The position numbers were made by a program, and so were the translations under genes. Source: Halarcobacter sp. (GTDB lineage Bacteria; Campylobacterota; Campylobacteria; Campylobacterales; Arcobacteraceae). From it: a stretch of DNA of 64,000 bases. Shown one piece after another: positions 15,684 to 51,003 of the stretch. Where the stretch lies: contig CP182352.1 in the NCBI GenBank assembly GCA_048571215.1, positions 608,001-672,000 on the forward strand. Direction: 5' to 3'. Each line of letters opens with the position of its first letter. Within the stretch, counting starts at the first letter, position 1. The notes beneath the pieces were generated by a model. That model did not search any database, was not told the DNA's origin, and was given only the letters and a program-made list of their open reading frames with translations.

Positions 15684-15716
15684 ATTATAGTTTTAAAAAA
15701 TCGTTAAATTATCGCA
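15684..15716 (-). promoter_or_regulatory. GCGA-box promoter 1 (SDR)
   Basis: TGCGATAATTTAACGA-N11-TATAAT. Confidence 0.75.
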
Positions 15717-15720
15717 GAGC

Positions 15721-16479
15721 TTATATTATCTCTATTTTATATCCTGTATTATTTTGTGTAGTTATCAAATCCTTATGTAGCTTATTTCTAAGTCTAAAAA
15801 GTATTGACCTAAATGCTGCATAACCTGCTGGCTCATCTTGCCAAATAGCGTACTCTATTTGTTCTTGAGATATATTATATCCTGCACTATTACAAAGAAT
15901 TTTTATAATTTGAGTTTCTTTTTTAGTAAGTTTTACAGGCTCATCCCCATAATATAAGATTTCTGTTTCTTTATCAAAAAGATATCCATATTTTAACTTA
16001 ACAGTACGTGATTTTTGTTCCCTTACTAACTCTAATTGATGACTTAATGTTTTATTGATATTTTCTGTGGCATTTAGTTCATGATCTCTTTTTGTATCAT
16101 CTTTAGATTTTTCTAGGGCTATCTCAATTGCTGCATGGAGATGACTTTTTTTATATGGTTTTAAAATATATCCATATGCCAAGGTTTCAGAAGCTTTTTT
16201 TATAGTAGAGATTTCAGAATTAGCAGTTAAAAAAACAACTGGAACATTTGGTAATATATGTTTTAACTCTTTTGCTAACTCAATACCTGTTGTAGGACCC
16301 TTTAAATATATATCCATTAAAATCAAATCAGGTTTAATCCCTTTTTCAAGAAGTTTCATAGTTTTGCATTTATTTGGTGCTATACCACAAGGCTCATATC
16401 CTAGCTCTATTAATGTTTCTTTTAAATTCATAGCAATAATAGACTCATCTTCAACAATCAATATTTTTATTTTTTCCAT
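15721..16479 (-). CDS. Response regulator (REC + winged HTH), copy 1
   Basis: IVEDE, LMDIYL, LKP; C-terminal wHTH ending TGYKI. Confidence 0.92.
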   Translation of the reverse strand: MEKIKILIVEDESIIAMNLKETLIELGYEPCGIAPNKCKTMKLLEKGIKPDLILMDIYLKGPTTGIELAKELKHILPNVPVVFLTANSEISTIKKASETLAYGYILKPYKKSHLHAAIEIALEKSKDDTKRDHELNATENINKTLSHQLELVREQKSRTVKLKYGYLFDKETEILYYGDEPVKLTKKETQIIKILCNSAGYNISQEQIEYAIWQDEPAGYAAFRSILFRLRNKLHKDLITTQNNTGYKIEII

Positions 16480-17780
16480 TATTCCTCCCTTAGTGGGAAA
16501 AAGATATTACACTCTAATCCCTTATTATTTTTAAAATCTATTGTTCCATCTAATTGGTCTTCAACTATAGAATGGATTAGTTGCATCCCAATTGAATCAG
16601 TCTTATATAAGGATGTGATGTTTTTTAGTCCATCCCCATTATCTCTAATCTTTAAGTGAATCTCATCTTCTAATTTTTTTATATGGATACATAAAAGATT
16701 TTCTCTGTTTTCTTTAAAAGCATATTTTAATGCATTTACACAAAGCTCATGTAAAACCATACCTACTTGTATACACCTATTTGTAGAGAATATAAGTTGG
16801 TCTATATTTAAATCAACCTCCAAATAAGTTTTATTTGAAATATATAACTCTTTTATATCATCAATAAGCCTTTTTATATAATCTTCCAAATTTATATATG
16901 CAAGATTTTCCCCAAGATATAAAAACTCATGGACCAATGCCATGGTATTTATTCTACTTCTACTTTGTTTTAATATATATTTTACTTCATCATCTTGTAC
17001 TCTTCTATATTGCATAGTTAGTAAAGATGAAATTATCTCCATATTGTTTTTAACTCTATGATGAATCTCTTTTAATAATATCTCTTTTTCATCAACTGAT
17101 TTTTGTAGCTCTTGGTTCATATTTGTTATTTTATTTCTATATACAAATCTAGGAGTGATATCCCTACCAAAGGCACAAATATAATCTTGACCACCATAAA
17201 TAAATCCATGACCAGAAACCTCTATATTTATTATACTTCCATCTTTTTTTCTTTGGGTTGTTTCTAGTGTCCAGTTTTTTGTATTTTTTATTTCAAGCAT
17301 ACATTCTTGGGCACTATTTCTATCAAAATTTGGATCCATCTCTTCTAAAAACATATCAAGCATCTCATCTTTTGTATAACCCAACATATTGCAAGCGGCA
17401 TTGTTTATATATACAATTCTTGCATCCAAAGTAAACCAATATATTGCATCAACGGAGTTATCAAGGGCAAATTCATATGGCGCTAGTCTATCTTTATCTT
17501 TTCTTTTTAATTCCTTATATGCCTTGTCAATATTTCGTATAACTTTTTGCATATGGTTTATCATCAAATAAAGAATAATCCCTGTAGAAATTACAAATAA
17601 AATTGCAAAAGTCAAGGGTCCTTGTTGGGAAATACTATTGTGTTCAAAAATAATTGTTATAAGTTTATCAAAGAACATAGCCCCTAAAACACCAATGATG
17701 ATATATGTTAATGAAAATCTTCTGGCTAACTTATTTTTATTTAAAACTGTATTTTTAAAATTTTCAATTCTTTTTATCAT
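16479..17780 (-). CDS. 2TM-PAS-HisKA_2 sensor kinase, copy 1
   Basis: KEIHHRVKNN H-box, ELCVNALKYAF, DNGDG; PAS domain. Confidence 0.92.
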   Translation of the reverse strand: MIKRIENFKNTVLNKNKLARRFSLTYIIIGVLGAMFFDKLITIIFEHNSISQQGPLTFAILFVISTGIILYLMINHMQKVIRNIDKAYKELKRKDKDRLAPYEFALDNSVDAIYWFTLDARIVYINNAACNMLGYTKDEMLDMFLEEMDPNFDRNSAQECMLEIKNTKNWTLETTQRKKDGSIINIEVSGHGFIYGGQDYICAFGRDITPRFVYRNKITNMNQELQKSVDEKEILLKEIHHRVKNNMEIISSLLTMQYRRVQDDEVKYILKQSRSRINTMALVHEFLYLGENLAYINLEDYIKRLIDDIKELYISNKTYLEVDLNIDQLIFSTNRCIQVGMVLHELCVNALKYAFKENRENLLCIHIKKLEDEIHLKIRDNGDGLKNITSLYKTDSIGMQLIHSIVEDQLDGTIDFKNNKGLECNIFFPLREE

Positions 17781-17830
17781 TGTAAACCTTTTGAAAAATT
17801 ATAGCAAAAAATTTTTGTATAAAATAAAAC

Positions 17831-17863
17831 TGCGATAATTTAGCGATATTATTAATTTAAAGT
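17831..17863 (+). promoter_or_regulatory. GCGA-box promoter 2 (phenol hydroxylase operon)
   Basis: TGCGATAATTTAGCGA-N11-TAAAGT. Confidence 0.8.
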
Positions 17864-17926
17864 TCACTAGTCAAAGATGAATTATATGATTTATAAGACA
17901 TCTGAATACTAAAAAAAGGTTGTGAT

Positions 17927-18178
17927 ATGGGTGCAAGCACTTTACAAACCAAATTGGATAAGTATGTACATATAACAAATCAAACCCAAAAAGGTTTAAT
18001 TGAGTTTGATTTTTCAGTTGGCAATCCAACATTGTATGTAGAACTAGCCTTACCAGTAAAACAGTTTGAGGAGTTTTGTAAGAAAAATCAAGTGAAATTT
18101 CTCACAAAACAACAGCTAATTGATGTAGAAAACGACAAGTATAAATGGAAGTTTGGCGTAGTTGGAACATCAAAATAG
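17927..18178 (+). CDS. dmpK: Phenol hydroxylase assembly subunit P0
   Basis: IEFDFSVGNPTLYVELALP motif; first gene of operon. Confidence 0.88.
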   Translation: MGASTLQTKLDKYVHITNQTQKGLIEFDFSVGNPTLYVELALPVKQFEEFCKKNQVKFLTKQQLIDVENDKYKWKFGVVGTSK

Positions 18179-18198
18179 ATTTAAACAGGAGAAGAAGA

Positions 18199-19194
18199 AT
18201 GACTTTAGATATAAAAAGCGTTGATATAAAACCTAAAAGATTGACTTTTGGTCATGTTGCTAGAAGAATTGGAGAAGATAAAGCTGCAACAAGATACGAA
18301 GAGGCAACTTATGATTTACAATCAGTTACAAACTTTCATTATAGACCTACATATAATCCAAAGTATGAATTATATGATGAAAGAAAAACTGCAATTAAAA
18401 TGAGTGATTGGTATAAGTTTTTAGACCCAAGACAATACTACTACTCAAATTATGTGATGACTAGGGCAAAACAACAAGAAGTAGCTGAGCAAAATTTTGT
18501 TTTTATTGAAAAAAGAGATCTTCTTGCTGTTATGCCTCAAGATGTAAAAGAGCAAATATTAACTTGTGTTTTACCTTTACGTCATTATGAGTGGGGAGCA
18601 AATATGAATAATCTTCAGCTTGTATCAGAATCATATGGTGCAGCATATGCTAGTGCAGCAATGTTTCATGCAGAAGATAGACTAGGAAATGCTCAATATA
18701 TAACTAGAATCGGATTATTAATTGGTGAAAATGAAACAGAGTTTTTAGATAAGTCAAAAGAGATTTGGCTAAATGATGCATCTTGGCAACCACTTAGAAA
18801 AGCTATGGAAGATAGTTTTGTGTTAGAAGATTGGTTTGAGTTACATATGGCTCAAAATGTGATTATGGATGGTTTCTTACACCCATTATTTTTTAATGTA
18901 TTTGAACAAGAGTTAAATGCAAAAGGTGGTTCTGCACAAGGAATGATGACTGAGTTTATTACAACTTGGTTTGAGGAATCAAGTAAATGGATAGATAAAA
19001 CTGTAAGTGTAGCTAGTAGTGAATCTTCTGAAAACTGTGAGATTTTAACTAGTTGGGCAGCAAGATATATTGATATCATGGAAGAAGCAACTCTTTCTTT
19101 AGCAAAAAATTTAGTATCAGACCCAGAAGCTGTTGTAAATGAAATAAAAGAAAATCTAATTGACCGTTTAAATAAAAACGGTTTAAATCTATAG
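18199..19194 (+). CDS. dmpL: Phenol hydroxylase beta subunit P1 (start re-set to MTLDIK)
   Basis: TRYEEATYDLQ, NFHYRP, DPRQYYY; AGGAG RBS before 18199. Confidence 0.92.
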   Translation: MTLDIKSVDIKPKRLTFGHVARRIGEDKAATRYEEATYDLQSVTNFHYRPTYNPKYELYDERKTAIKMSDWYKFLDPRQYYYSNYVMTRAKQQEVAEQNFVFIEKRDLLAVMPQDVKEQILTCVLPLRHYEWGANMNNLQLVSESYGAAYASAAMFHAEDRLGNAQYITRIGLLIGENETEFLDKSKEIWLNDASWQPLRKAMEDSFVLEDWFELHMAQNVIMDGFLHPLFFNVFEQELNAKGGSAQGMMTEFITTWFEESSKWIDKTVSVASSESSENCEILTSWAARYIDIMEEATLSLAKNLVSDPEAVVNEIKENLIDRLNKNGLNL

Positions 19195-19202
19195 GAGATG
19201 TT

Positions 19203-19478
19203 ATGGCTGATAATAATGTAATGTTAATTCTTCAAAGTGTTGAAGAAGCAAGACCAATGGTAGAGGCGATTTTAAAAGATAATACAGCAGCTACAGTTCA
19301 AAATGAACCTGCAATGATAAAAATAACTTGCCCAAATAAGTTAGTAGTTAAAGCTGATACTATGGAAGAGCTTATTGGTAGAGAGTGGGATCCACAAGAG
19401 TTACAGTTAGTGTTAATCTCTCTTGCGGGTAATGTTGATGAAGATTATGATCATTTTACAATCTATTGGGATAACTAG
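19203..19478 (+). CDS. dmpM: Phenol hydroxylase regulatory/coupling protein P2
   Basis: MmoB/DmpM-like GREWD...LISLAGNVDED. Confidence 0.92.
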   Translation: MADNNVMLILQSVEEARPMVEAILKDNTAATVQNEPAMIKITCPNKLVVKADTMEELIGREWDPQELQLVLISLAGNVDEDYDHFTIYWDN

Positions 19479-19487
19479 GAGAAACTT

Positions 19488-21008
19488 ATGACAATGAATA
19501 CAAAAAACAGAAAAAAACGTTTAAATATGAAAGAGAAGTATCACCATATGACAAGACTTGGATGGGATACAACATATCAAGATATGGATAAGGTTTTCCC
19601 TTATGATAAATTTGAGGGTATAAAGATACATGATTGGGAAGCTTGGGAAGATCCATTTAGAATGACAATGGATGCTTACTGGAAATATCAAGGGGAAAAA
19701 GATAAAAAGCTTTATGCGATTATTGATGCTTTTGCACAAAATAATGGACAAAAAAACATTACAGATGCAAGATATGTATCAGCATTAAAACTGTTTTTAA
19801 CAGGTGTTTCTCCTTTGGAATATCAAGCACATAGAGGTTTTGCTCATGTGGCAAGAAACTTTAGAGGTGATGGTCCAAGAGTTGCTTGTCAAATGCAAGC
19901 AATAGATGAGTTAAGACATGTACAAACACAAATTCATACTTTAAGTCATTATAATAAACACTTTAATGGATTCTCTGAATGGTCTCATTGGCATGATAGA
20001 GTATGGTACCTTTCAGTTCCAAAATCGTTTTTTGATGATGCAAGAACAGCTGGACCTTTTGAGTTTATGATTGCAATTGGTTTTTCATTTGAATATGTTC
20101 TAACAAATCTATTATTTGTACCATTTATGAGTGGTGCTGCATATAATGGAGATATGGCGACAGTAACATTTGGATTCTCAGCACAAAGTGATGAGGCTAG
20201 ACATATGACATTAGGTTTACAAGCTATTAAGTTCATGTTAGAACAAGACCCAGATAATGTTCCTATTGTTCAAAAATGGATTGATAAATGGACATGGAGA
20301 GGATATAAGGTTTTAGGACTTGTATCTATGATGATGGATTATATGTTACCTGAATCTCCTCAATCTTGGAAAGAAGCTTGGGAATTATATTTTGAAGAAA
20401 ATACAGTTTCTTTATTTAAAGATTTAGAAAGATATGGAATAACAATTCCAAAATGTGCTGGAACAGTTGCAGCAGAAAAAGAGCATCTATCTCATCAAAT
20501 TTGGATGACATTTTATACTCATGGGGCAGCTGCACCTTTTCATACTTGGATTCCAGATGAGAAAAAGATGGATTGGTTGAGTGAAAAATATCCAAACACT
20601 TTTGATAAATATTATAGACCAGTGTATGAACATTGGGATAAATTAGAAAAACAGGGAAAAAGATATTACTCTGAGATGCTTCCTCAACTTTGTCAAACTT
20701 GTCAAATTCCAATGTTATATACAGAAGTTGAAAAAGGTGAACCAACTCAAATCGCCCATAGACATACGATGTATAATGGGGAAAGATTCCATTTCTGTTC
20801 AGATCATTGTAAAGAGATTTTTGAAGATGAACCAGAAAAATTTACTCACTCTTGGATGCCTGTTCAACAAATTTTCCAAGGAAATTGTGGTGGAGCAACA
20901 CTTCCAGAAGTATTAGATTGGTATAAAGTAAAATTTGGTGTAGATAACTGTGACTACAAAGGCTCAGAAGATGAAGCTACTTGGAAAAAGTGGCATGGAC
21001 AAGCATAA
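19488..21008 (+). CDS. dmpN: Phenol hydroxylase diiron alpha subunit P3
   Basis: DELRH and DEARH diiron motifs, WEDPFR, YHS-like C-terminus. Confidence 0.96.
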   Translation: MTMNTKNRKKRLNMKEKYHHMTRLGWDTTYQDMDKVFPYDKFEGIKIHDWEAWEDPFRMTMDAYWKYQGEKDKKLYAIIDAFAQNNGQKNITDARYVSALKLFLTGVSPLEYQAHRGFAHVARNFRGDGPRVACQMQAIDELRHVQTQIHTLSHYNKHFNGFSEWSHWHDRVWYLSVPKSFFDDARTAGPFEFMIAIGFSFEYVLTNLLFVPFMSGAAYNGDMATVTFGFSAQSDEARHMTLGLQAIKFMLEQDPDNVPIVQKWIDKWTWRGYKVLGLVSMMMDYMLPESPQSWKEAWELYFEENTVSLFKDLERYGITIPKCAGTVAAEKEHLSHQIWMTFYTHGAAAPFHTWIPDEKKMDWLSEKYPNTFDKYYRPVYEHWDKLEKQGKRYYSEMLPQLCQTCQIPMLYTEVEKGEPTQIAHRHTMYNGERFHFCSDHCKEIFEDEPEKFTHSWMPVQQIFQGNCGGATLPEVLDWYKVKFGVDNCDYKGSEDEATWKKWHGQA

Positions 21009-21017
21009 GGAGATAAA

Positions 21018-21380
21018 ATGGCTGTTAAATCAATAGGTAAATATGAAGCAAATATGATGGATAGAGTTGAGAACTTTCATGGTAATCAACTGGTTTTTAT
21101 TGGTTGGGATAAACATAGAATGATAAATTCAGCTATGGGTTTTCCTTTACCACCACAAATGCCATTTTCAGCACTTTTAAGTGATGTGATGCCAATGTGT
21201 TATAAAGACCATCCAGATTTTGAAAAAGTTGTTTGGGATGATTCTGTTATTTGGAATCTAAATGGTGAATCTTTTTCTCCTGATGTAAATAAATCATTGG
21301 AAGAAAATGGAATCGACCACAAATCTATTTTAAGATTTGAAACACCAAATCTTACAGGATTAAATGGCGTAGGGATGTAA
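21018..21380 (+). CDS. dmpO: Phenol hydroxylase gamma subunit P4
   Basis: ENFHGNQL, GWDKH, HPDF, GIDHKSILRF. Confidence 0.92.
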   Translation: MAVKSIGKYEANMMDRVENFHGNQLVFIGWDKHRMINSAMGFPLPPQMPFSALLSDVMPMCYKDHPDFEKVVWDDSVIWNLNGESFSPDVNKSLEENGIDHKSILRFETPNLTGLNGVGM

Positions 21381-21381
21381 G

Positions 21382-22440
21382 ATGAGTTATACAGTTGAGA
21401 TTGAACCAACAGGTGATGTAATAGAGGTTCAAGAGGGACAAACAATTCTTGATGCGGCATTAAGACAAGGGGTATATCTACCCCATGCCTGCAATCATGG
21501 CTTGTGTGGAACTTGTAAAATCGAACTTCTTGAAGGGGAAGTTGACCATGGAGATGCTTCACCATTTGCTTTGATGGATATGGAAAAAGATGAAGGAAAA
21601 TGTTTGGCATGTACTTCAAAACCTAAAGAGGATTGTGCAGTTGAAGCTGATATTGATGAGGATGCAGATGCAAGAAGTATCCCTGTAGAAGATTTTGAAG
21701 CAACAGTTGTAGAAATAAAAGATTTAACCCCAAGAATTAAGGGGATAGTTTTAGAACTTGATAAAAATATTGATTTTCAAGCTGGACAATATGTACAATA
21801 TTATGTTCCAGATTTTGAAGAACCTAGAGCTTTTTCAATTGCAAGTTCTCCTAAAAGTGGAAAAACTATAGAGTTAAATATATCTTTGATACCTGATGGT
21901 GAAGTTACACCTTGGATACATAATAATACAAAAGTTGGAGACAAAACAAAAGTCTCTGGTCCTTTTGGAAGATTTTTTGTAAAAGAATCAGCTCAAAAAC
22001 CTATGGTATTTTTTGCTGGAGGTTCTGGTTTATCAAGTCCAAAGTCTATGATTGAAGATCTACTTGAAAGAGGATGTACCTTGCCTATAACACTTTTTCA
22101 CGGAGCTAGAAATCAAGATGAGCTTTATTATGCAGATTTATTTAGAAACTTAGAAAAAGAGTATGAAAATTTTAGATATATACCTGCATTATCGGGAGAT
22201 AATTTAGTTGAATGGGACGGTGAAACTGGTTATTTAAATGATGTGGCAGTTAAAACCTATGATAATAACTTCTCAGGTCATAAAGCATATTTATGTGGAC
22301 CACCTGCAATGTTAGATGTATGTATTACTGCACTTATGAGGGGAAGGTTATATGAAAGGGATATTCATATAGAAAAATTCTTTTCTAAAGCAGATTTAGA
22401 TGCAAAAAACCAAAAAAGTCCACTTTTTAAATCTTTATAA
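21382..22440 (+). CDS. dmpP: Phenol hydroxylase reductase P5
   Basis: 2Fe-2S CNHGLCGTC, RAFSIAS, GGSGLS, YLCGPP. Confidence 0.95.
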   Translation: MSYTVEIEPTGDVIEVQEGQTILDAALRQGVYLPHACNHGLCGTCKIELLEGEVDHGDASPFALMDMEKDEGKCLACTSKPKEDCAVEADIDEDADARSIPVEDFEATVVEIKDLTPRIKGIVLELDKNIDFQAGQYVQYYVPDFEEPRAFSIASSPKSGKTIELNISLIPDGEVTPWIHNNTKVGDKTKVSGPFGRFFVKESAQKPMVFFAGGSGLSSPKSMIEDLLERGCTLPITLFHGARNQDELYYADLFRNLEKEYENFRYIPALSGDNLVEWDGETGYLNDVAVKTYDNNFSGHKAYLCGPPAMLDVCITALMRGRLYERDIHIEKFFSKADLDAKNQKSPLFKSL

Positions 22441-22483: not shown

Positions 22484-22516
22484 CGCGAAATATTCGCGAC
22501 TAAAATTCACTATAAT
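22484..22516 (+). promoter_or_regulatory. GCGA-box promoter 3 (tauE-like gene)
   Basis: CGCGAAATATTCGCGA-N11-TATAAT. Confidence 0.8.
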
Positions 22517-22540: not shown

Positions 22541-23344
22541 ATGTTAGATATGCAAACAATAATATATTTTTTACTATTAGGTTCTTTTGTTGGAGTGGTA
22601 TCAGGACTTTTTGGAATAGGTGGGGGTGGGATTATAGTTCCTATTTTAACTACGATTTTTTTATCCCACGGAATTGATGAGAGAAATGTTGTACATATGG
22701 CACTAGGTACCTCAATGGCCATTATAATAATAACATCAATTTCAAGTATAAGAGCCCAACAAAAGAAAAAAGCAATAGTGTGGAATATTGTAAAAATGAT
22801 GGTTCCAGGTATATTAATAGGTACATTTTTAGCTACTTTTATAGCGTCAAAATTAGATTCATTTTATCTATCAATAATATTTAGTATTTTTATGTTTTTC
22901 ACCTCAATTAATATGTTTATAGGCAAAAAGCCAAAAGCAGAATCAAAAGTTTTTTCAAATAAAACACATTTTTTTTCAGGGGGACTTATAGGTGGATTAT
23001 CCTCTTTAGTATCTATTGGTGGAGGGATATTAAGTGTCCCATATCTACTTGTGCAAAATGTAGATATAAAAAAAGCAATAGCAACATCATCAGCAATAGG
23101 TTTCCCAATAGCACTATCTGGAACCTTGGGTTATATAGTAAATGGTTGGAGCAATACTTCAATAGATACACTAACAATAGGATATGTAAACCTAGCAGCC
23201 TTTGCTTGTGTAGCAGTAGCCAGTTTCACCACAGCTCCAATTGGAGTTATGTTAGTACATAAAATAAATGTGAATATAATGAAAAAATTGTTTTCAGTAT
23301 TGCCTTTTATTTTGAGCATTAAGATGATTTATTCTTTGGTGTAA
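22541..23344 (+). CDS. TauE/SafE (TSUP) family membrane transporter
   Basis: GLFGIGGGGIIVP and SIGGG repeats, multiple TMs. Confidence 0.88.
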   Translation: MLDMQTIIYFLLLGSFVGVVSGLFGIGGGGIIVPILTTIFLSHGIDERNVVHMALGTSMAIIIITSISSIRAQQKKKAIVWNIVKMMVPGILIGTFLATFIASKLDSFYLSIIFSIFMFFTSINMFIGKKPKAESKVFSNKTHFFSGGLIGGLSSLVSIGGGILSVPYLLVQNVDIKKAIATSSAIGFPIALSGTLGYIVNGWSNTSIDTLTIGYVNLAAFACVAVASFTTAPIGVMLVHKINVNIMKKLFSVLPFILSIKMIYSLV

Positions 23345-41725: not shown

Positions 41726-41728
41726 GTA

Positions 41729-42529
41729 ATGGATAATAAAATGACAAATGAAAAAATTGAACAATATGGAAATGAATTATATGATTCTTTGAAGTCAACT
41801 AAATCTATTGCTCCATTGACAAGTAGAGAGGCAGATATAACAATTGAAGATGCTTATGCTATTCAAGATGTCTTAATCAAAAGAAGAATGAGTGAAGATG
41901 GTTCAAAAATCATTGGTAAAAAAATCGGCGTAACATCAAAAGTTGTGATGGATATGTTAGGGGTTGACCAACCAGATTTTGGATACTTATTATCAGATAT
42001 GATCTATTCTGATGGTGATGAGATTGATGTATCTACTAAAATGATTCAACCAAAAGCTGAAGGTGAAATAGCCTTTGTTTTAAAAGAAGACTTAATGGGA
42101 CCAGGGGTAACAAATGCAGATGTTCTAAGAGCAACTAAATTTGTTATGCCTTGTTTTGAGATAGTTGATTCAAGAATTACTGATTGGAAAATAAAAATCC
42201 AAGATACAGTTGCAGATAATGCTTCTTGTGGATATATAGTATTTGGTGGACAAAGTGCAGATCCAAGAGATTTGGATTTAACAACTTGTGGTATTACACT
42301 TGAAAGAAATGGTGAGTTATTACATACAGGTGCTGGAGCAGCAGCTCTTGGTAGTCCTGTAAATGCTGTAGTTTGGTTAGCTAATAAATTAGGTGAATTT
42401 GGAGTTGGTTTAAAAGCTGGAGAGGTTATTCTTTCAGGGGCTTTATGTGCTATGGTTCCAATTGAATCAGGGGATAATATGACTATAAATATTGGTGGAA
42501 TTGGTTCTGCCTCTTGTAGGTTTGTGTAA
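41729..42529 (+). CDS. dmpE: 2-oxopent-4-enoate hydratase
   Basis: GKKIGVTS, QPDFG, IQDTVADNAS. Confidence 0.9.
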   Translation: MDNKMTNEKIEQYGNELYDSLKSTKSIAPLTSREADITIEDAYAIQDVLIKRRMSEDGSKIIGKKIGVTSKVVMDMLGVDQPDFGYLLSDMIYSDGDEIDVSTKMIQPKAEGEIAFVLKEDLMGPGVTNADVLRATKFVMPCFEIVDSRITDWKIKIQDTVADNASCGYIVFGGQSADPRDLDLTTCGITLERNGELLHTGAGAAALGSPVNAVVWLANKLGEFGVGLKAGEVILSGALCAMVPIESGDNMTINIGGIGSASCRFV

Positions 42530-42669
42530 AGAGTTACTTATTACTTCTTTTAGAGTTTTTAAAAAGGGTGAAAACACAAGCTTTTTAGGTGAGATTTACT
42601 TTCACTGGTAAAAAGAAATTACAGAATAAAAGGTCCCTTTAAAATAGGGACTATTTTTAAGGATATAGA

Positions 42670-43554
42670 ATGAAAATTAATTGTGCATTGATAGGTCCAG
42701 GAAATATTGGTTTAGACCTAATGTATAAACTTCAAAGAAGTGAAATACTTAATCCATTATGGATGGTGGGGATTAACGAAGGATCAAAAGGTTTAGCAAA
42801 AGCTAGAGATAATGGTCTTAAAACTACACATAATGGTGTAGATGGATTATTAGAACATATTGAAAAAGATGAAATAAAAATTGCATTTGATGCAACGTCA
42901 GCATATGTACATGGTGAAAATAATAGAAAATTAAAAGAAAAAGGTGTAATGGTTATTGACCTTACACCAGCAGCTATTGGACCATTTTGTGTACCTTCAG
43001 TAAATCTACAAGAGTTATTGGCACAAAATACACAAAATGTAAACATGGTAACTTGTGGTGGACAAGCAACTATTCCTATGGTTGCAGCTGTTTCACAAGT
43101 ACAAGCAGTTGAATATGGTGAAATAGTTGCTACTATTGCTTCAAAATCAGCAGGACCTGGTACTAGAGCAAATATTGATGAGTTTACAGAAACTACAGCT
43201 TTAGGGATTGAAAAAGTTGGTGGGGCAAAAAAAGGTAAAGCAATTATTATATTAAATCCAGCAGAGCCGCCACTTATGATGAGAGATACTGTTCATTGTT
43301 TAACTGTAGGTGAACCAGATCAAGAAGCTATTACTGAATCTGTTCATAAGATGATAGCAAAAGTTCAAAGATTTGTACCTGGATATAAACTAAAAAATGG
43401 ACCAGTATTTGATGGAAATAGAGTATCAATCTTTTTAGAGGTTGAAGGGCTAGGTGATTATTTACCAAAATATGCAGGAAATCTAGACATCATTACAGCA
43501 GCTGCAACAGATGTAGCAGAGCAAATGGCTGAAAAAATAAAAGCAGGGGTATAA
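42670..43554 (+). CDS. dmpF: Acylating acetaldehyde dehydrogenase
   Basis: [31 protein letters not shown]. Confidence 0.95.
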
Positions 43555-43555
43555 G

Positions 43556-44584
43556 ATGGATTTAAATGGTAAAAAAATAAAAATACATGATATGTCTTTA
43601 AGAGATGGAATGCACTCTATTAGACATCAGTTTACTCTTGATCAAATGAAAAATATGGCAACAGCTATGGATGATGCAGGAGTTCCATATATTGAAGTAA
43701 CTCATGGGGATGGACTAGGTGGTTCATCTGTAAATTATGGCTTTGGATTACATAGTGATGAAGAGTGGTTAGATGCAGTTGTTCCAAACTTAAAAAAATC
43801 AAAAGTATCTGTACTTTTATTACCAGGGATTGGAACAGTACAAAATCTAAAAAGTGCTGTAAAACATGGTGCTTCAATGGTTAGAGTTGCAACTCACTGT
43901 ACAGAAGCTGATGTATCAGCACAACACATAAAAGCTGCACGTGAAATGGGACTTGATACAGTTGGATTTTTAATGATGTCTCATATGATTGATGAGAAAA
44001 AATTATTAGAACAAGCGAAATTGATGGTTTCTTATGGAGCAACAACAGTTTATGCAACTGATTCAGCAGGATATCTTTTACCAGAAGGTGTTTACAAAAG
44101 AATTGATACTATTAAACAACATTTTGGTGATGATATTGAAGTTGGTTTTCATGGTCATAACAATATGTCTATGGGAGTTGCTAACTCAATTGCAGCTATT
44201 GAAGGTGGTGCAAATAGAATTGATGCATCACTAGCTGGATTTGGTGCTGGTTCTGGAAATACTGCAACTGAAGTATTGGTTGCTGTTTTAAGTAGAATGG
44301 GTGTTGAAACTGGAATTGATTTAAATAAAATTGAAGATGCAGCTGAAGATATTGCATTACCAATTATGGGTAAACCTACAAGAATCTCAAGGGATTCATT
44401 AACTTTAGGATATGCAGGTGTTTATTCATCATTTTTACTTTTTGCAAGACGGGCACAAGAAAAATATGGTATTGATGCTAGAGCAATTCTTATAGAGTTA
44501 GGAAAAAGGGGAACTGTTGGTGGTCAAGAGGATATGATTGAAGATTTAGCCTTAGATATGGCAAAAGAAAAAGGACTTATATAA
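43556..44584 (+). CDS. dmpG: 4-hydroxy-2-oxovalerate aldolase
   Basis: [39 protein letters not shown]. Confidence 0.95.
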
Positions 44585-45372
44585 TGGCACTAGATAAAGA
44601 AACAATAGAAAAACTTGCAAAACATTGTGAAGATGCAGAAATAAATGCTTATGAGATTACTAAGATAACAGATGATTATCCTGAAATGACTTATAAGGAT
44701 GCCTTTGATATTCAATGGACAGCAAGAAGAAATAAAGAGGCTCGTGGTACTAAGATTATTGGTATGAAGATGGGGCTAACTAGCCAAGCAAAAATGAAGC
44801 AAATGGGTGTTGAAAATCCTTGTTATGGATATTTGGCTGATTACTTTGCATATGCTGATGGAGCTGAGATTGAGATTGATAAACTGATACATCCAAAGGT
44901 AGAAGCTGAGATTGCTTTTGTTTTAAAAGAGGATTTAGCAGGACCTGGCTGTCATATTGGTGATGTAATAGCTGCTACTGATTTTGTTATGCCTGCTGTT
45001 GAGATTATTGATTCAAGATATAAAGATTTTAAATTTGATTTAAAATCAGTTATTGCAGATAACTCTTCATCTTCAAGATATGTAACAGGTGGGCAAGCAA
45101 GGGATATTAAAGGTTTAGACCTTAAAACTCTTGGTGTAGTTATGGAAATAAATGGTGAAATAGTTCAACTTGGAGCTGGTGCTGCTGTTCTTGGACATCC
45201 TGCAACTTCTATTGCAATGCTTGCAAATATGATGGCTGAAAGAGGTGAAACACTTAAAAAAGGTGAATATATTTTATCAGGTGCAATCACAGCTGCTATA
45301 TCAGTAAAAAAAGGTGATAATGTAAATGTTAAATTCCAAGATTTAGGTTCTGTGTCATTTAAGTTTGTATAG
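44584..45372 (+). CDS. dmpH: 4-oxalocrotonate decarboxylase
   Basis: KMGLTSQAKM, IHPKVEAEI, SVIADNSSS. Confidence 0.92.
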   Translation: MALDKETIEKLAKHCEDAEINAYEITKITDDYPEMTYKDAFDIQWTARRNKEARGTKIIGMKMGLTSQAKMKQMGVENPCYGYLADYFAYADGAEIEIDKLIHPKVEAEIAFVLKEDLAGPGCHIGDVIAATDFVMPAVEIIDSRYKDFKFDLKSVIADNSSSSRYVTGGQARDIKGLDLKTLGVVMEINGEIVQLGAGAAVLGHPATSIAMLANMMAERGETLKKGEYILSGAITAAISVKKGDNVNVKFQDLGSVSFKFV

Positions 45373-45463
45373 GTTTTTTACTTTAAATGGTTCTATAAAT
45401 CATTTTAAAAGTAGAAAAAATTATCACTCCCTAAAAAATAGGGAGAATTTTTAAGGATACATT

Positions 45464-45655
45464 ATGCCAATAGCAACTATAAATATTATTGAGGGTCGCG
45501 ATGATGAAAAAAAAGAGAAGCTTATTGAAAAAGTAACTCTTGCTATTCATGAATCATTAGATGCTCCAATTGAGACGATTAGGGTGATTTTAAATGAGAT
45601 GCCAAAACAGCATTATGGTATAGCTGGAAAAAGTGTAAAAAAACTAGGAAAATAG
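45464..45655 (+). CDS. dmpI: 4-oxalocrotonate tautomerase
   Basis: Pro-1 (MPIA), EGR, IAGK; 63 aa. Confidence 0.93.
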   Translation: MPIATINIIEGRDDEKKEKLIEKVTLAIHESLDAPIETIRVILNEMPKQHYGIAGKSVKKLGK

Positions 45656-45657
45656 TA

Positions 45658-46674
45658 GTGAAGTTAAAATTAAGTGTATTAGACCAATCCCCAATACATG
45701 ATAACAAAGAGGCTAAGAGTGGTCTTTTTGATACAATAGAATTAGCAAAACTTTGTGAGGATTTAGGATATAAAAGGTATTGGTGTGCAGAGCATCATGA
45801 TACACCAGGATATGCAAGTTCATCACCTGAGATAATGGTTGCAGCTGTAGCTTCTGCCACTTCAAAAATAAGAGTAGGAAGTGGTGGGGTGATGTTAAAC
45901 CATTATAGTGCTTATAAGGTAGCTGAAATATTTAATACCTTAACTGCTCTTCATGGTTCTAGAATAGATTTAGGAATAGGTAGAGCCAATGGAGCAAATT
46001 TTTTAAGTGCAAGGGCACTTCATAATAAAAATAGTGATTCTTATGCCCAAAAAGCAAACGATTTAATAAATTATTTAAACGATACTGTACCCAAAAACGA
46101 TTATTTTCATGGGGTTGGAATATCTCCTAAAGATGTTGAATCAACTCCTGTATACCTATTGGGTTCTAGCGATGGAAGCTCTGCTTTAGCTGCCCATCTT
46201 GGAGCTAGTTTTTGTTTAGCTTTATTTATTGGAACCCATGAGAGACCAATAGAAATAATTGAAAATTATAAAAAGCAATTTAAAGCTTCAAAAACTTTTA
46301 ATAAACCAAAACCTATGATAGCAGTTGCTTGTATATGTGCACCCACAAAAGAGGAGGCAATACAAATAGCATCAAGCCATACCTATTGGAAAGTTCAAGC
46401 TTTTAGACACACTACAAGAGATGGTTTACATAGTCCCCAAGAGGTAGAAGAACTATACGAAGAGTTATCTTATGATGATAAAATATATTATCACGAGACT
46501 ATGAAAACTATGGTTTTAGGTACACCAAAAGAGTGTAAAGAGAAAATAGAAAATTTAGCAAAAGAGTATGGAGTTGATGAGGTTATGCTTGTTAATGTAA
46601 CTTACTCTTTTGAAGATAGAAAAAGATCATATAAACTTTTAGCCAAAGAGTTTAATTTAAATAAAGGAGAATAG
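45658..46674 (+). CDS. Luciferase-like (LLM) flavin-dependent oxidoreductase
   Basis: LSVLDQSP, WCAEHH, IRVGSGGVML, RIDLGIGRA. Confidence 0.88.
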   Translation: MKLKLSVLDQSPIHDNKEAKSGLFDTIELAKLCEDLGYKRYWCAEHHDTPGYASSSPEIMVAAVASATSKIRVGSGGVMLNHYSAYKVAEIFNTLTALHGSRIDLGIGRANGANFLSARALHNKNSDSYAQKANDLINYLNDTVPKNDYFHGVGISPKDVESTPVYLLGSSDGSSALAAHLGASFCLALFIGTHERPIEIIENYKKQFKASKTFNKPKPMIAVACICAPTKEEAIQIASSHTYWKVQAFRHTTRDGLHSPQEVEELYEELSYDDKIYYHETMKTMVLGTPKECKEKIENLAKEYGVDEVMLVNVTYSFEDRKRSYKLLAKEFNLNKGE

Positions 46675-47499
46675 ATGTCACAAAATCCTGAAATTGCAAA
46701 TAGTATAAAAACAGGAAGTTTTAATACAAATTATCATGATATTGGAGAGGGTGAACCAATCATTTTTATTCATGGTTCAGGACCTGGGGTTTCAGCATTT
46801 GCAAATTGGCGGTTGTGTATGCCTGTACTTGCTGAAAAATTTAGAGTAATTGCGCCTGATATGGCAGGTTTTGGTTTTTCTGATAGACCTGAAGGAATGA
46901 TTTATAACATGGATGTTTGGCTTAAACAAACAATCGATTTAATGGATGCTTTAGGTATTGAAAAAACAAATCTAGTGGGAAATTCATTTGGTGGAGCTTT
47001 AGCATTAGCTTTAACTATTAAATATCCTCAACGATTTGATAAAATTGTACTTATGGGTGCAATGGGAGTTGAGTTTGAGATTACAGCTGGACTTGATCAA
47101 GCTTGGGGATATACACCAAGCTTAGAAAATATGAAATCATTGCTTGATACCTTTGCTTATAGTAGAGTATTGGTAACTGACGAGTTAGCAAAATTAAGAT
47201 ATGATGCAAGTATTAGACCTGGATTTCAAGAATCGTTTGGTTCAATGTTCCCTGAACCTAGACAATCCTCAGTTACTGCAATGGCTAGTGATGAAGAGAA
47301 TATAAAAAAAATAAAAAACAATGTTCTAATTATTCATGGTAGAGAAGATAAAGTTATCCCTTTTGAAAACTCAATAAGATTACATAATTTGATAACAAAA
47401 TCACAATTACATGGTTTTGGAGAATGTGGACATTGGAGTCAAATAGAACATAAAGATAGATTTAATGAGCTTTTATTAGATTTTTTTAGTGAAGAGTAA
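46675..47499 (+). CDS. dmpD: 2-hydroxymuconic semialdehyde hydrolase
   Basis: HGSGPGVSAFANW, GNSFGG, HGREDKV, CGHW. Confidence 0.92.
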   Translation: MSQNPEIANSIKTGSFNTNYHDIGEGEPIIFIHGSGPGVSAFANWRLCMPVLAEKFRVIAPDMAGFGFSDRPEGMIYNMDVWLKQTIDLMDALGIEKTNLVGNSFGGALALALTIKYPQRFDKIVLMGAMGVEFEITAGLDQAWGYTPSLENMKSLLDTFAYSRVLVTDELAKLRYDASIRPGFQESFGSMFPEPRQSSVTAMASDEENIKKIKNNVLIIHGREDKVIPFENSIRLHNLITKSQLHGFGECGHWSQIEHKDRFNELLLDFFSEE

Positions 47500-47535
47500 T
47501 ATTGTATAATTAATTTTATTTAATTATACAAAGGA

Positions 47536-48498
47536 TTGATAATGAATTTTATAATTTTGGGTGCTGGTGGTATAGGTTCTTTTTATGGTGCAAAACTAAT
47601 TGAACACGGACATCATGTCTTATTCGTAGCAAGAGGTGAACACTTAAAAGCCTTACAGCAAAATGGTTTGAAGTTGCAGCACCCAAAATTTAAGTTTAAT
47701 AAAAAAGTTGATGTCACCCAACTTTCTTTTTTAAACTCTGAAATGCTTCTAAAAGTTAATGCTGTAATTATTACTACTAAATCAACTTCAACTGAATATA
47801 TTGCAAAGGAGTTGTCTTCATATTTAGCTTCAAAACAAGAGAGTTTTCCTTTCATTATCTCTTTACAAAATGGGGTCGAAAATGAAGATATCCTTTGCAA
47901 GTATTTCCCAAAAGATAAAGTAATAGGTGGTTTGTGTAGAAAAATTGGGGCACATATAGTAAAGCCTGGAGTTATTGAAGCTACAGGGGATATTGAAACT
48001 ATAATAGGTGCTATGAAACTTACAAATAAAAGTAAAGCATTTTTATTGGATTTTAAAAATATTTTAACAGATGCAAATATATTTTGTGGTATTACTGATA
48101 ATATAAAATTTGAGTTATGGAAGAAATTAATTATTAACAATGGAGTAAATGCTATTTGTGCATTGTTAAGAATTAAAACCGGGAAATTGATGTCCCATAA
48201 TAAGTTATCTAAAATAGTATTGGAACTTATGAAAGAAACAGCTACAGCTGCAAGGGTTCAAGGGGTAAAATTCACAAATGAAGATGTTATTCAAATGTAT
48301 GAACTTATTAAAAACTTTGATTCTATAAAACCTTCAATGTTAGTTGATGTAGAAAACAATAGACCTATTGAATTAGATGAGATATGCACTATAGTTATAA
48401 AAAACTGTGAATCACTTAAGCTAGACGCTCCTTATACTAGAACTATATCAACTTTATTATCTTATACTTATATAGAAAAAAGAGGCTTTAAAAATTAA
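47536..48498 (+). CDS. Ketopantoate reductase family protein
   Basis: GAGGIG, LQNG, WKKL, PSML.D...RPIE. Confidence 0.88.
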   Translation: MIMNFIILGAGGIGSFYGAKLIEHGHHVLFVARGEHLKALQQNGLKLQHPKFKFNKKVDVTQLSFLNSEMLLKVNAVIITTKSTSTEYIAKELSSYLASKQESFPFIISLQNGVENEDILCKYFPKDKVIGGLCRKIGAHIVKPGVIEATGDIETIIGAMKLTNKSKAFLLDFKNILTDANIFCGITDNIKFELWKKLIINNGVNAICALLRIKTGKLMSHNKLSKIVLELMKETATAARVQGVKFTNEDVIQMYELIKNFDSIKPSMLVDVENNRPIELDEICTIVIKNCESLKLDAPYTRTISTLLSYTYIEKRGFKN

Positions 48499-49376
48499 TG
48501 TTATATCAAATCATAAATATACTCTTTCCTGTATTATTAGCAAGTTCAATAGGGTATGTTTATGGAAAATTTCAAAAATTAGATATGGAGATACCAAATA
48601 AAATAAATCTTGATATTTTTATCCCTATTTTGATTTTTTATGCAATTAGTGAAAAACTTCCCTCTATCACAGTTCTTGGATATTTCTCTTTAGGTGCAGT
48701 ACTTGTGGTTTTTGGTTCTGGTATTATTTTGTACCCATTTTTAAAATTTTTAGATATTAACATAAGAGCTTTTTTACCCACAATGATGTTTAATAACTCT
48801 ATAAATTTAGGTTTACCTTTGGCTTTATTTGCCTTTGGTCAAGAGGCTATGGCTATGTTTATAGCCTTATCTTTAGTGCAAGTAATTGGGCAGTTTACGG
48901 TTGCAGTTGTTATGTATGGAGGGAGTTTTAAACTATTTGATTTATTAAAAAATCCTGTAATCATAGCTACGATTATAGCACTTATTTTTAACTATTTTGA
49001 TTTTCATTTACCACAATTAATAATCTCTTCTGTAGATATGTTATCTAAAGTTGCCATACCTTTAATACTTTTTTCCCTTGGGGTTAAATTATCTACTGTT
49101 AAGTTTGCACATTATAAAGTTGGCATTATTGGTGCAATTTTATGTCCATTATCTGGGCTTGCTATGGCATATTTAGCTATAGAGATTTTTGAATATACAG
49201 CTTTACAAAAAGATTTAATAATCCTTTTTGGGGTATTACCACCTGCTGTTTTAAATGCAATCTTAGCGGAAAAATATAATCAAGACTCTTCAATGGTAGC
49301 TTCTGTTGTAGCTATGGGAACACTTTCTAGTATTATTTATATCCCTATCGTTTTATATTTTTTATTACAAAACTAG
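48498..49376 (+). CDS. AEC-family transporter
   Basis: NSINLGLP, IPLILFSLG, PPAV. Confidence 0.85.
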   Translation: MLYQIINILFPVLLASSIGYVYGKFQKLDMEIPNKINLDIFIPILIFYAISEKLPSITVLGYFSLGAVLVVFGSGIILYPFLKFLDINIRAFLPTMMFNNSINLGLPLALFAFGQEAMAMFIALSLVQVIGQFTVAVVMYGGSFKLFDLLKNPVIIATIIALIFNYFDFHLPQLIISSVDMLSKVAIPLILFSLGVKLSTVKFAHYKVGIIGAILCPLSGLAMAYLAIEIFEYTALQKDLIILFGVLPPAVLNAILAEKYNQDSSMVASVVAMGTLSSIIYIPIVLYFLLQN

Positions 49377-49407: not shown

Positions 49408-49440
49408 TGCGATAAATTTACGAATTATTTTTTGTATTAT
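49408..49440 (+). promoter_or_regulatory. GCGA-box promoter 8 (small ORF)
   Basis: TGCGATAAATTTACGA-N11-TATTAT. Confidence 0.7.
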
Positions 49441-49472
49441 GCTTATAATAAATAACAAATATAGGCATAGTT

Positions 49473-49559
49473 ATGAAAGATTACTTAGGGTTACATTTCT
49501 TAGTTATTAATTTAAGTTTAGTATTCTTTATATTATGTCATTTGTATTTGAAATTTTAA
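49473..49559 (+). CDS. Putative 28-aa single-TM peptide MKDYLGLHFLVINLSLVFFILCHLYLKF
   Basis: Short hydrophobic ORF just downstream of a GCGA-box promoter; weak RBS (TAGGCA). Confidence 0.45.
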   Translation: MKDYLGLHFLVINLSLVFFILCHLYLKF

Positions 49560-49627
49560 AAATAGTTAGTTTAGAAATAATAAACCATGTTCTATAAAAA
49601 AGCATAATTTAGAGAAGATAGTTTTAA

Positions 49628-49659
49628 GTGCCCTTTTATGGAGGAGTATAAAAGAGCAC
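49628..49659. terminator. Hairpin downstream of porin
   Basis: GTGCCCTTTTAT...ATAAAAGAGCAC. Confidence 0.6.
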
Positions 49660-49667
49660 GAGTTATA

Positions 49668-50864
49668 TTAGAATTTATATGTTAAATAAACTCTTGTAGT
49701 GTCTGTATCTTTTGGTATCTTTTCAACCTCTACATGTTCATAGTTTACTTTAAGAAGTAAGTTTTTTGAAACAGGATATATTGCTATAGCACCCATTGCT
49801 GTAACATCACCGATTGGATGAGTTGAAGACATAGATTTACCAGCATACCCAACTGCAGTTGCACCCATAACAGGAACAGCAATAGCACCCACTATTGTAT
49901 CTGTATCTGCTCTAGTTGGAACTCCACCACCATGTACTGGCATTGCAGTAAAAGGAGTATCTGTTGTACCTGAACCTGCACCTACATATACAGGAGCATT
50001 CTTATCTGTACTTGAATTATATGCTAACACATATCCAAGTTTTCCTATCCCTAATGGTCCAGTAGCTTTTAATCCAAAAAGTTTTCCATCTTGTGCATTT
50101 GCAGCTTGAGTTTTATCAGTTGATGATAAGAATTGAGCTGAAAGCATGTGACCATTTAAATTATAGTCTGCTTGTAAATATAAAGCATCTTTATCTGTTG
50201 CAGAAGTTTTTCCACTTTCATCTAAATATTGAGCTTGTAGAGTTAAATTTTCAATAGAAGTATTTTTTGCATAGATTGTATATGCACCATCTTGAAAATC
50301 TTTAAAATCTCCTATATCATTTGATGTAGCATCAACTTTGTTTTGATATTTGTTTACATAACCTGCAACAAGAGTAGTGTTAGGAATATCAGTATTTGTT
50401 AAAACATAAGCTTCAAATGAATCTTTTAATACAGTCTCAGAAGATTTCCCATCAATTGCTGTACTTACAAGTGGTGTATAGATATATTGTCTACCAGCTT
50501 TCAAACTTGTATTAGAGTATTTATATTGAATATAAGATTCTGATAATCTAGCTCCTGATGCATCCAGTGGGTCTATTTGAGGTCCTGCTGTTGGAGCATT
50601 GAAGTCATCAGTTAATACAGTTGAAGCTTGAAAGGTAACTCCTGCTGAAAAACCATAAAAATCTCCAGTAATTACCCCAAGGCTACCACCAACTGCAGTA
50701 ATATCTTCTGATTTTGCTGCACCCAGAAAATTAGAATCAGAGTACTCTGCTTTAATCTCACCTTTAACCTTAAGATTTTGTAATGCATCTGAAAGGTTAT
50801 CTGCTAATAGTGGAGTAGTGATTGCTATAGATGCAATCAAACTTAAGCATGAAATTTTTTTCAT
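49668..50864 (-). CDS. Outer-membrane porin (OprD/Campylobacterota type)
   Basis: Signal peptide, KAGRQYIYTPL, C-terminal RVYLTYKF. Confidence 0.85.
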   Translation of the reverse strand: MKKISCLSLIASIAITTPLLADNLSDALQNLKVKGEIKAEYSDSNFLGAAKSEDITAVGGSLGVITGDFYGFSAGVTFQASTVLTDDFNAPTAGPQIDPLDASGARLSESYIQYKYSNTSLKAGRQYIYTPLVSTAIDGKSSETVLKDSFEAYVLTNTDIPNTTLVAGYVNKYQNKVDATSNDIGDFKDFQDGAYTIYAKNTSIENLTLQAQYLDESGKTSATDKDALYLQADYNLNGHMLSAQFLSSTDKTQAANAQDGKLFGLKATGPLGIGKLGYVLAYNSSTDKNAPVYVGAGSGTTDTPFTAMPVHGGGVPTRADTDTIVGAIAVPVMGATAVGYAGKSMSSTHPIGDVTAMGAIAIYPVSKNLLLKVNYEHVEVEKIPKDTDTTRVYLTYKF

Positions 50865-50970
50865 TTTATTCCCTTATGTTATATTTAGATTTTCAAAACT
50901 AAGATTTTTTCCTTAATATAAAAATTCGCAAAACTATTAAAGAAAATTCTTAGGATGAATTTCAATACTA

Positions 50971-51003
50971 AATATAGTTAAATGAAATCGCACTTTAATC
51001 GCA
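50971..51003 (-). promoter_or_regulatory. GCGA-box promoter 9 (porin)
   Basis: TGCGATTAAAGTGCGA-N11-TATATT. Confidence 0.78.

Follow-up and report, generated by a model that had tools for sequence, protein, structure and literature searches.

Phenol hydroxylases of the dmp type are, in the textbook account, controlled by sigma54 promoters and DmpR-type activators. In Pseudomonas, DmpR/XylR control places a DmpKLMNOP-type hydroxylase and a meta pathway under one regulator type. Here we describe a phenol/catechol island in a 64,000-nucleotide stretch of a Halarcobacter sp. genome from the family Arcobacteraceae (assembly GCA_048571215.1, contig CP182352.1, forward-strand positions 608,001 to 672,000; hereafter the window). 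The island also combines such a hydroxylase with a meta pathway under one regulator type, but its promoters appear to be housekeeping-type and carry an OmpR-type box instead of sigma54 elements. This box is a direct repeat with the pattern GCGANNNNNNNRCGA (GCGA-N7-(G/A)CGA). It is probably the operator of two paralogous response regulators encoded in the island, RR1 and RR2, and we suggest that it acts like the PhoB activator box, standing in the place of the −35 element and switching on the island genes together.

Several described systems resemble this arrangement in part. The pho boxes read by PhoB in Escherichia coli are likewise two direct repeats with an 11-bp period, located about 10 bp before the −10 and replacing the −35 element. 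PhoB also combines a receiver (REC) with a winged helix, and many promoters of its regulon share the box. In contrast to PhoB, which reads CTGTCAT half-sites, the island half-site is GCGA. The island kinases are of the PAS/HisKA_2 type while PhoR is HisKA, the island regulators have a helical insert of about 25 amino acids (aa) between their domains, and the targets are aromatic catabolism rather than phosphate scavenging. The TodS/TodT (toluene) and StyS/StyR (styrene) systems also join a PAS kinase and a response regulator to an aromatic operon. TodT and StyR are, however, NarL/FixJ-type helix-turn-helix proteins that use upstream palindromic or pseudopalindromic boxes at one operon, whereas the island has OmpR-type winged helices, a direct repeat in the −35 place, nine promoters and two paralogous systems. 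Finally, CosR, HP1043, DccR and RacR of Campylobacter and Helicobacter belong to the same phylum and fold, and share AT-rich promoters without a −35 element and boxes that overlap the promoter. Their known half-sites are AT-rich and do not include GCGA. The genes under their control serve stress responses, respiration or the envelope, and none of the four is known to be partnered by a HisKA_2 kinase or to belong to a catabolic island. Full-text searches found no literature on the regulation of phenol or catechol genes in Arcobacteraceae, and none in which an OmpR-type regulator controls a multicomponent phenol hydroxylase.

The box pattern has exactly nine matches in the window, against a mean of 0.05 in dinucleotide-preserving shuffles, none of which (0/100) reached nine. 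All nine are intergenic and oriented toward the downstream open reading frame (ORF), and the distance from box to −10 is exactly 11 nt at every site (Table 1). These are the same nine tandem sites that a first-pass annotation of the window had listed by the outer ends of box plus −10, with the same 11-nt spacing, and each was recovered at the place named. The annotation had each site pointing at a downstream gene, which holds for orientation; at one site, placed by it at 49408 (+), the target is an unannotated 28-aa ORF and not an annotated gene. It was also right that the motif stands out because CpG is scarce. The genome has a G+C content of 28.5% and a CpG observed/expected ratio of 0.23 (0.24 in the window), and of the 24 GCGA/TCGC tetramers in intergenic DNA from 14865 to 52519, the nine boxes account for 20. 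Its statement that no such tandem occurs outside 15.7–51 kb is true of the window, which contains no further exact tandem box, but not of the genome (3.61 Mb), where there are 18 matches, nine in the 35-kb island stretch and nine elsewhere. Boxes with one mismatch, a −10 and an AT-rich spacer number zero in the window and nine in the genome, all outside the window.

The nine out-of-island matches are of several kinds. Three are identical copies of one sequence, of which one was inspected and lies in 23S rRNA. Two are GC-rich repeats adjoining a tyrosine-recombinase gene, one lies within a long ORF, two overlap in a threefold 11-bp tandem repeat at genome position 3374219, and one is upstream of an EamA transporter gene.

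We compared the source genome (G000) with 60 other genomes, referred to by other G numbers where they need to be told apart. Orthologous regulators (71–96% identity) turned up in 10 of these, namely 9 of 24 congeners and one genome of another genus in the family; two further congeners with homologues of only about 40% identity were not counted as regulator-bearing. Every regulator-bearing genome, G000 and the 10 others, has box clusters on the contig of the regulator; the 15 congeners that lack an orthologous regulator have none. The 10 genomes contain 90 box matches: 50 in islands, two beside a third paralogous pair of histidine kinase (HK) and response regulator (RR), and two at the EamA gene are among them. 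The 51 matches in the 15 regulator-less congeners are scattered, or belong to the multi-copy sequence located in 23S rRNA in G000.

This distribution bears on the possibility that the box is read by another factor and that the neighbouring regulators are incidental. Such a factor could be a DNA-binding protein encoded elsewhere, or else an alternative sigma factor for which GCGA would serve as a −35-like element. One genome, G010, would fit such a factor. At C2:411000-422000 it has a truncated ApbA-like gene, an AEC permease and a porin with an intact box promoter, and no orthologous regulator was found in it at E ≤ 1e-40. We read this locus as a decayed remnant of the end of the island. Against another factor, box clusters track the regulator genes across the genomes, the window has no sigma-factor gene and no other transcription-factor gene conserved with the island, and the −10 hexamers are housekeeping-type. 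Direct repeats with an 11-bp period are, moreover, the signature of tandem binding by the OmpR family. We therefore consider a reader other than RR1 and RR2 very improbable.

The boxes precede orthologous operons in the relatives, whose island ORFs were labelled by BLAST against the window proteins, while the flanking sequence has diverged. A check of orthologous loci, as proposed in the first-pass annotation, thus showed boxes kept before the same units in 10 relatives. The boxes of the hydroxylase operon and of the porin gene are each kept in 10/10 genomes. That of the catechol 2,3-dioxygenase (C23O) operon is kept in all nine genomes in which a separate promoter precedes it; G007 and G009 lack such a promoter, their C23O operon being fused to the hydroxylase operon. 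The box of the short-chain dehydrogenase/reductase (SDR) promoter, adjoining the RR1 stop codon at a distance of 5 nt, is kept in 8/8 genomes with this gene next to the regulator, and that of the malate/lactate dehydrogenase-family (MDH) gene in 7/7 two-system genomes. Boxes at the TauE, livK and SBP3 promoters are found in three of three genomes each (G000, G002 and G017). The ABC-importer and SBP_bac_3 boxes stand back-to-back, and each is identical in G002 and G017. At the SDR (8/8) and mini-ORF (5/5) promoters the second half-site invariably reads ACGA, and at the others GCGA, which suggests graded affinity.

We aligned 60 unique box sites from the 11 genomes. The −10 positions, which are outside the search pattern, are conserved at a fixed offset (T27 in 52/60, A28 in 57/60 and T32 in 59/60), and so is a TT at +21/+22 (57/60 and 56/60). 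The information in the alignment lies in the two tetramers, a T before and a TT after the first tetramer, the TT at +21/+22 and the −10. Although the genomes are related, so clear a contrast between fixed and freely varying positions amounts to a clean phylogenetic footprint. A non-regulatory origin would make the boxes a duplicated promoter cassette or a product of chance in CpG-poor, AT-rich DNA, where −10-like hexamers arise easily. Yet none of the 100 shuffles reached the observed count, and the box positions have been retained at the orthologous promoters of 10 further genomes. Since the sequence between and around the conserved positions is itself unconserved, the sites are not copies of one element. 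We regard a non-regulatory origin as close to negligible.

We next turn to the regulators. RR1 and RR2 are 76% identical, and the kinases HK1 and HK2 65%. HK1-RR1 is flanked by the hydroxylase operon and the SDR gene, and HK2-RR2 lies beside the MDH and meta operons. Both regulators match the Pfam families Response_reg (76.1 and 74.1 bits for RR1 and RR2) and Trans_reg_C (39.1 and 39.7 bits; cut-off 26.2), and the receiver residues E10, D11, D56, T85 and K107 are invariant in 18/18 regulators aligned. An AlphaFold2 model (mean pLDDT 78) has the OmpR/PhoB topology of a sheet, three helices and a beta-hairpin wing. Its winged-helix elements are E159-177, H186-197, H205-213, H220-233 and E239-249, with pLDDT 82–91 over most of the domain. 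The best Foldseek matches were full-length OmpR/PhoB regulators (PrrA, KdpE, MtrA, PhoP, RpaA, CosR and PmrA; E 2e-14 to 8e-12), and the CosR-DNA structures 8uvk and 8uvx were among the matches.

The regulators do not belong to a named family of this type. They fall far below the cut-off of every named NCBIfam equivalog (PhoB, RpaB, KdpE, CreB and others), the best full-length scores being 68 for RpaB (cut-off 330) and 67 for PhoB (cut-off 296). Close homologues (E ≤ 1e-5, n = 159) carry generic names only, and their named sources are Arcobacter, Halarcobacter, Aliarcobacter and Poseidonibacter. A profile search of genome contigs with the regulator alignment gave no close named orthologues; its patterns came from the receiver domain and retrieved generic receiver proteins (≤52% identity), and the nearest full-length matches, from Aliarcobacter/Arcobacter, were 35% identical. 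The regulators are best read as a new lineage-specific OmpR-type subfamily of Arcobacteraceae. In the predicted recognition helix and its surroundings (EPAGYAAFRS-LFRLR-K-HKDLI), polar and charged residues are invariant in 18/18 homologues from four clades, and the three variable positions differ in side-chain size (I/L/V; N/G/S). This invariance matches that of the GCGA tetramers.

The regulator tree has two well-supported clades (100/99), one containing RR1 and the regulators of single-system genomes and the other RR2 and the third paralogue. Clade-specific residues occur in the helix-loop after the phospho-accepting His box of the kinase and in receiver helix 1, which reads KETL in the RR1/single-system clade and K(H/Q)(V/I)L in the RR2 clade. 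HK1 and HK2 have two N-terminal hydrophobic segments, and their nearest NCBIfam models, PhyK and LOV-kinase, score below cut-off. Their PAS domains are 59% identical to each other; between G000 and G006, the HK1 PAS domains are 91% and the HK2 PAS domains 80% identical. Considering that the PAS domains are conserved within a clade and differ between clades, we infer two insulated signalling channels with different ligands.

In the mechanism that we propose, the PAS/HisKA_2 kinases HK1 and HK2 would phosphorylate RR1 and RR2, respectively. Two phosphorylated monomers would then bind the GCGA half-sites head-to-tail in place of a −35 element and contact or recruit the housekeeping RNA polymerase, turning on the whole phenol/catechol island. 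HK1, by the hydroxylase, and HK2, by the meta pathway, would sense different aromatic signals, and RR1 and RR2 would both feed the one shared box. If the −10 hexamer is taken as −12 to −7, the box reaches from about −38 to −24. The centres of box and −10 are 21.5 bp apart, about two helical turns and thus on the same helix face. There is no −35 hexamer; the hexamers found there belong to the AT-rich spacer within the box. Class II activators of the OmpR family bind direct repeats one turn apart in the −35 place and contact the polymerase. The fixed 11-nt spacing argues for a stereospecific contact, as in activation, over mere occlusion.

The same regulators and box could instead act by repression, blocking the −35 region until an aromatic signal releases the regulators. 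A box between about −38 and −24 fits a repressor as well as an activator. Good −10s, T-rich upstream tracts and some TG extensions suggest that the promoters might fire unaided, and what appears to be the core of the EamA promoter occurs without the box in regulator-less species. A repressor, however, needs overlap and not phase, whereas the spacing is fixed at 9/9 window sites and at 52–59 of the 60 aligned sites. The 21.5-bp centre distance is also the geometry of pho boxes and other class II OmpR-family activators, and two-component catabolic islands are usually switched on by the phosphorylated regulator. We consider repression unlikely, and retain activation by RR1 and RR2 as the probable role of the box.

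Besides this fit to a repressor, several points weigh against activation by RR1 and RR2. Promoters of this bacterial group are generally described without a conserved −35, and its absence is therefore not diagnostic of dependence on an activator. A HisKA_2 kinase is an unusual partner for an OmpR-type regulator, and the linker insert (residues 131–155) is a low-confidence part of the AlphaFold2 model, with pLDDT below 50. The compared genomes are kin, so that the counts overstate independence, and the porin box of G010 is intact in a genome where no orthologous regulator was found. A division of the boxes into RR1 and RR2 classes by spacer or flank bases (positions 11 and 16) showed trends, but both kinds also occurred in single-system genomes, and the box sequences did not assign promoters to one regulator or the other. 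That phenol is the signal or inducer is a guess from gene context.

The box may also serve the regulator genes themselves. A −10 on the opposite strand lies exactly 28 nt from the box at both kinase operons, at the third paralogue and at single systems elsewhere. An extended −10 (TGnTATAAT) is present on the kinase strand of 15 of the 17 phenol hydroxylase (PH)- and MDH-class promoters (8/10 PH and 7/7 MDH); in G015 and G022 the hexamer is TAAAAT at the same distance. A conserved ribosome-binding site follows beyond the kinase-strand −10. As one box serves two divergent promoters, both kinase/regulator operons are likely autoregulated through it.

The same geometry was found at the EamA gene, 0.3 Mb from the island, where a box in reverse orientation (G000:C1:923472-923486) lies 28 nt upstream of a TACAAT −10. 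This box is present in G000, G002 and G017 only; the upstream neighbour gene differs among them, and conservation starts at the box. All 18 congeners examined have EamA orthologues, and none of the other 15 has the box, although the promoter core is recognisable, box-free, in G003, G011 and G013. It appears that one lineage has drawn a chromosomal gene into the regulon, a lead that comes from three close relatives.

In two genomes (G002:C6:41000-49000 and G017:C28:12000-20000), the third paralogous HK-RR pair has one box in a divergent intergenic region and adjoins a distant porin homologue (32–33% identity). It may form a separate small regulon that uses the same box.

As far as the sequence can tell, control of the classical DmpR type is ruled out. 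The hydroxylase and meta promoters have no sigma54 −24 GG/−12 GC element, GG occurring there only in ribosome-binding sites, and no NtrC-family activator is encoded among the 41 window proteins. The single true Sigma54_activat protein of the genome has a GAF N-terminus and is located at 3.04 Mb, 2.4 Mb from the island. A genome search for XylR_N (PF06505) gave no match, but its control also matched in 0/14 genomes. The first-pass annotation was thus borne out in setting the island apart from sigma54/DmpR systems. Its proposal of one OmpR-type activator needs amendment: OmpR-type regulators do adjoin the boxes, but in two paralogous kinase/regulator pairs, with a third pair in two relatives. 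Its view that the motif marks the functional extent of the region agrees with the near-exclusive occurrence in the island, and has to make room for the distant box at EamA.

The gene content of the island is that of a phenol and catechol pathway (Table 1). All six hydroxylase genes, K, L, M, N, O and P, are present in dmp order, together with ferredoxin, C23O and lower-pathway enzymes. Their Pfam families are Phenol_hyd_sub, Phenol_Hydrox (twice), MmoB_DmpM, Phenol_monoox and a Fer2+FAD+NAD reductase. The first part of the meta operon encodes ferredoxin, C23O (TIGR03211, 405 bits; cut-off 320), an HbpS-like protein, HMS dehydrogenase, hydratase and acetaldehyde dehydrogenase. The rest encodes aldolase, decarboxylase, tautomerase (45464-45655), a luciferase-like oxidoreductase, HMS hydrolase, an ApbA-like reductase and an AEC-family permease. 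Arcobacter sp. CAB is described as growing on catechol via the meta pathway and as forming the yellow ring-fission product with catechol but not with acetate (PMC3656443), so that the orthologous meta pathway works in a cultured Arcobacter; for such a relative, catechol is the one substrate of the pathway whose use is in print. The meta-pathway gene order of the island is the order listed there for strain CAB, and the terms 'two-component' and 'histidine kinase' do not occur in that paper (PMC3656443).

Table 1. Coordinates of box promoters, regulator genes and other island features in the window.
Feature	Position	Strand	Description and basis
SDR gene	14865..15662	−	Short-chain dehydrogenase/reductase; Pfam
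SDR promoter	15684..15715	−	Box GCGATAATTTAACGA 15701-15715, 11 nt, TATAAT 15684-15689
RR1	15721..16479	−	Response regulator, 252 aa; REC, ~25-aa helical linker insert, OmpR/PhoB winged helix
HK1	16479..17780	−	Membrane-anchored PAS + HisKA_2 + HATPase kinase, 433 aa; co-transcribed with RR1; Pfam
HK1-RR1 operon −10	17798..17803	−	TATAAT, extended TGC; 28 nt from box at 17832 (reverse reading)
Phenol hydroxylase operon promoter	17832..17863	+	Box GCGATAATTTAGCGA 17832-17846, 11 nt, TAAAGT 17858-17863
Phenol hydroxylase operon	17927..22440	+	Six-component, DmpKLMNOP-type; Pfam
Hydroxylase subunits K, L, M	K 17927-18178, L 18145-19194, M 19203-19478	+	
Hydroxylase subunits N, O, P	N 19488-21008, O 21018-21380, P 21382-22440	+	
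TauE-family permease promoter	22485..22516	+	Box GCGAAATATTCGCGA 22485-22499, 11 nt, TATAAT
TauE/SafE-family permease gene	22541..23344	+	Pfam
Liv-type ABC importer operon	27910..32563	−	Binding protein, 2 ATPases, 2 permeases; Pfam
Liv-type ABC importer operon promoter	32603..32634	−	Box GCGATTAAGAAGCGA 32620-32634, 11 nt, AATAAT with TGT before it
SBP_bac_3 gene promoter	32664..32695	+	Box GCGATAATTTCGCGA 32664-32678, 11 nt, AATAAT with TGG before it
SBP_bac_3 gene	32747..33472	+	Solute-binding protein; Pfam
HK3	33500..35161	−	Hemerythrin-PAS-HisKA-HATPase kinase; directly downstream of RR2; Pfam
RR2	35248..36009	−	Paralogue of RR1, 253 aa; Pfam
HK2	36006..37307	−	Paralogue of HK1; Pfam
HK2-RR2(-HK3) operon −10	37317..37322	−	TATAAT, extended TGA; 28 nt from box at 37351
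MDH promoter	37351..37382	+	Box GCGAATATTTCGCGA 37351-37365, 11 nt, TATACT
MDH gene	37411..38346	+	Malate dehydrogenase-family enzyme; Pfam; NF004863, 374.9 bits (cut-off 283)
Ferredoxin/C23O meta-pathway promoter	38462..38493	+	Box GCGATTATTATGCGA 38462-38476, 11 nt, TAAAGT
Meta-cleavage operon	38547..49376	+	Pfam/NCBIfam
Mini-ORF promoter	49409..49440	+	Box GCGATAAATTTACGA 49409-49423, 11 nt, TATTAT
Mini-ORF	49473..49559	+	28 aa, hydrophobic (MKDYLGLHF...); unannotated; conserved; ribosome-binding site
Opr-family porin gene	49668..50864	−	Outer-membrane porin; Pfam; NCBIfam below cut-off
Opr-family porin promoter	50971..51002	−	Box GCGATTAAAGTGCGA 50988-51002, 11 nt, TATATT

The mini-ORF and its box are conserved in G002, G017, G015 and G023, with mostly conservative changes. 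It is followed by a conserved hairpin at about 49630-49662, a terminator shared with the convergent porin gene. Among the genomes compared, HK3 is found only in G000, with no counterpart at this place in the other loci; it could link an oxygen or iron signal to the oxygenase-dependent pathway. The island is split, after the TauE gene and before the ABC operon, by a box-free insertion (23500-27900) that appears to be a mobile or defence patch; it encodes a DUF772 transposase fragment, a HepT-like RNase, a HARE-HTH protein and an HNH nuclease. Rfam gave no matches at gathering scores in the whole window.

Two box promoters have additional elements downstream of the −10. In the porin leader, a lone extra half-site TTTTGCGA lies on the minus strand at 50926-50929, about 40 nt downstream of the −10, and is kept in several genomes. 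Directly after the −10 of the meta-operon promoter (about 38501-38526, +) there is an inverted repeat, TTAAAAAGT-N5-7-ACTTTTTAA, whose arms are kept in 7–8 of 9 genomes while its loop varies in length and sequence. Its fold (−9.3 kcal/mol, z-score −1.32) was equalled in 23 of 200 shuffles and is not significant alone. What supports the repeat is the conservation of its arms, and it may form a stem-loop at the 5' end of the mRNA or serve as a second operator.

Two of the out-of-island match regions have features of their own. At G000:C1:895239-899000, the tyrosine recombinase (Phage_integrase and SAM_4 domains) adjoins repeated GC-rich imperfect palindromes that are separated by small ORFs, as in an integron-like array, and G002, G003 and G022 contain the same string of repeats. 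At G000:C1:3374219-3374244, three copies of the 11-bp unit GCGAAAAATAT (minus strand) separate a TATAAT from the start of an 800-aa ORF. This ORF matches no Pfam family and the repeat was not found in relatives; it is probably unrelated to the box regulon.

Taken together, these observations could describe a mobile island with its own regulatory code. Two insulated kinases would signal to two regulators with the same DNA-reading residues, and these to one box at every island promoter, including those of the kinase operons, the porin and the 28-aa membrane peptide, with the host EamA gene recruited in one lineage. We offer this combined picture tentatively and regard it as somewhat doubtful in its entirety. 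If true, a dmp-type phenol hydroxylase would for the first time be seen under OmpR-type control independent of sigma54, and two inputs would meet at one operator in a natural circuit.

In this phylum, the breakdown of aromatic compounds and the way it is regulated have barely been studied. The motif would provide a complete map of the regulon, comprising nine promoters and two autoregulated operons, and would assign accessory genes to the pathway: the ABC importer, the binding protein, the porin, TauE, SDR, MDH and the mini-ORF. The box and the sensor pairs are possible parts for phenol/catechol biosensors in AT-rich hosts. By prediction, this compact, lineage-specific subfamily of regulators would have a new DNA specificity, GCGA. 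The duplicated pairs, with shared DNA-reading residues and different sensors, may offer a natural system in which to study signal integration and the insulation of pathways after duplication.

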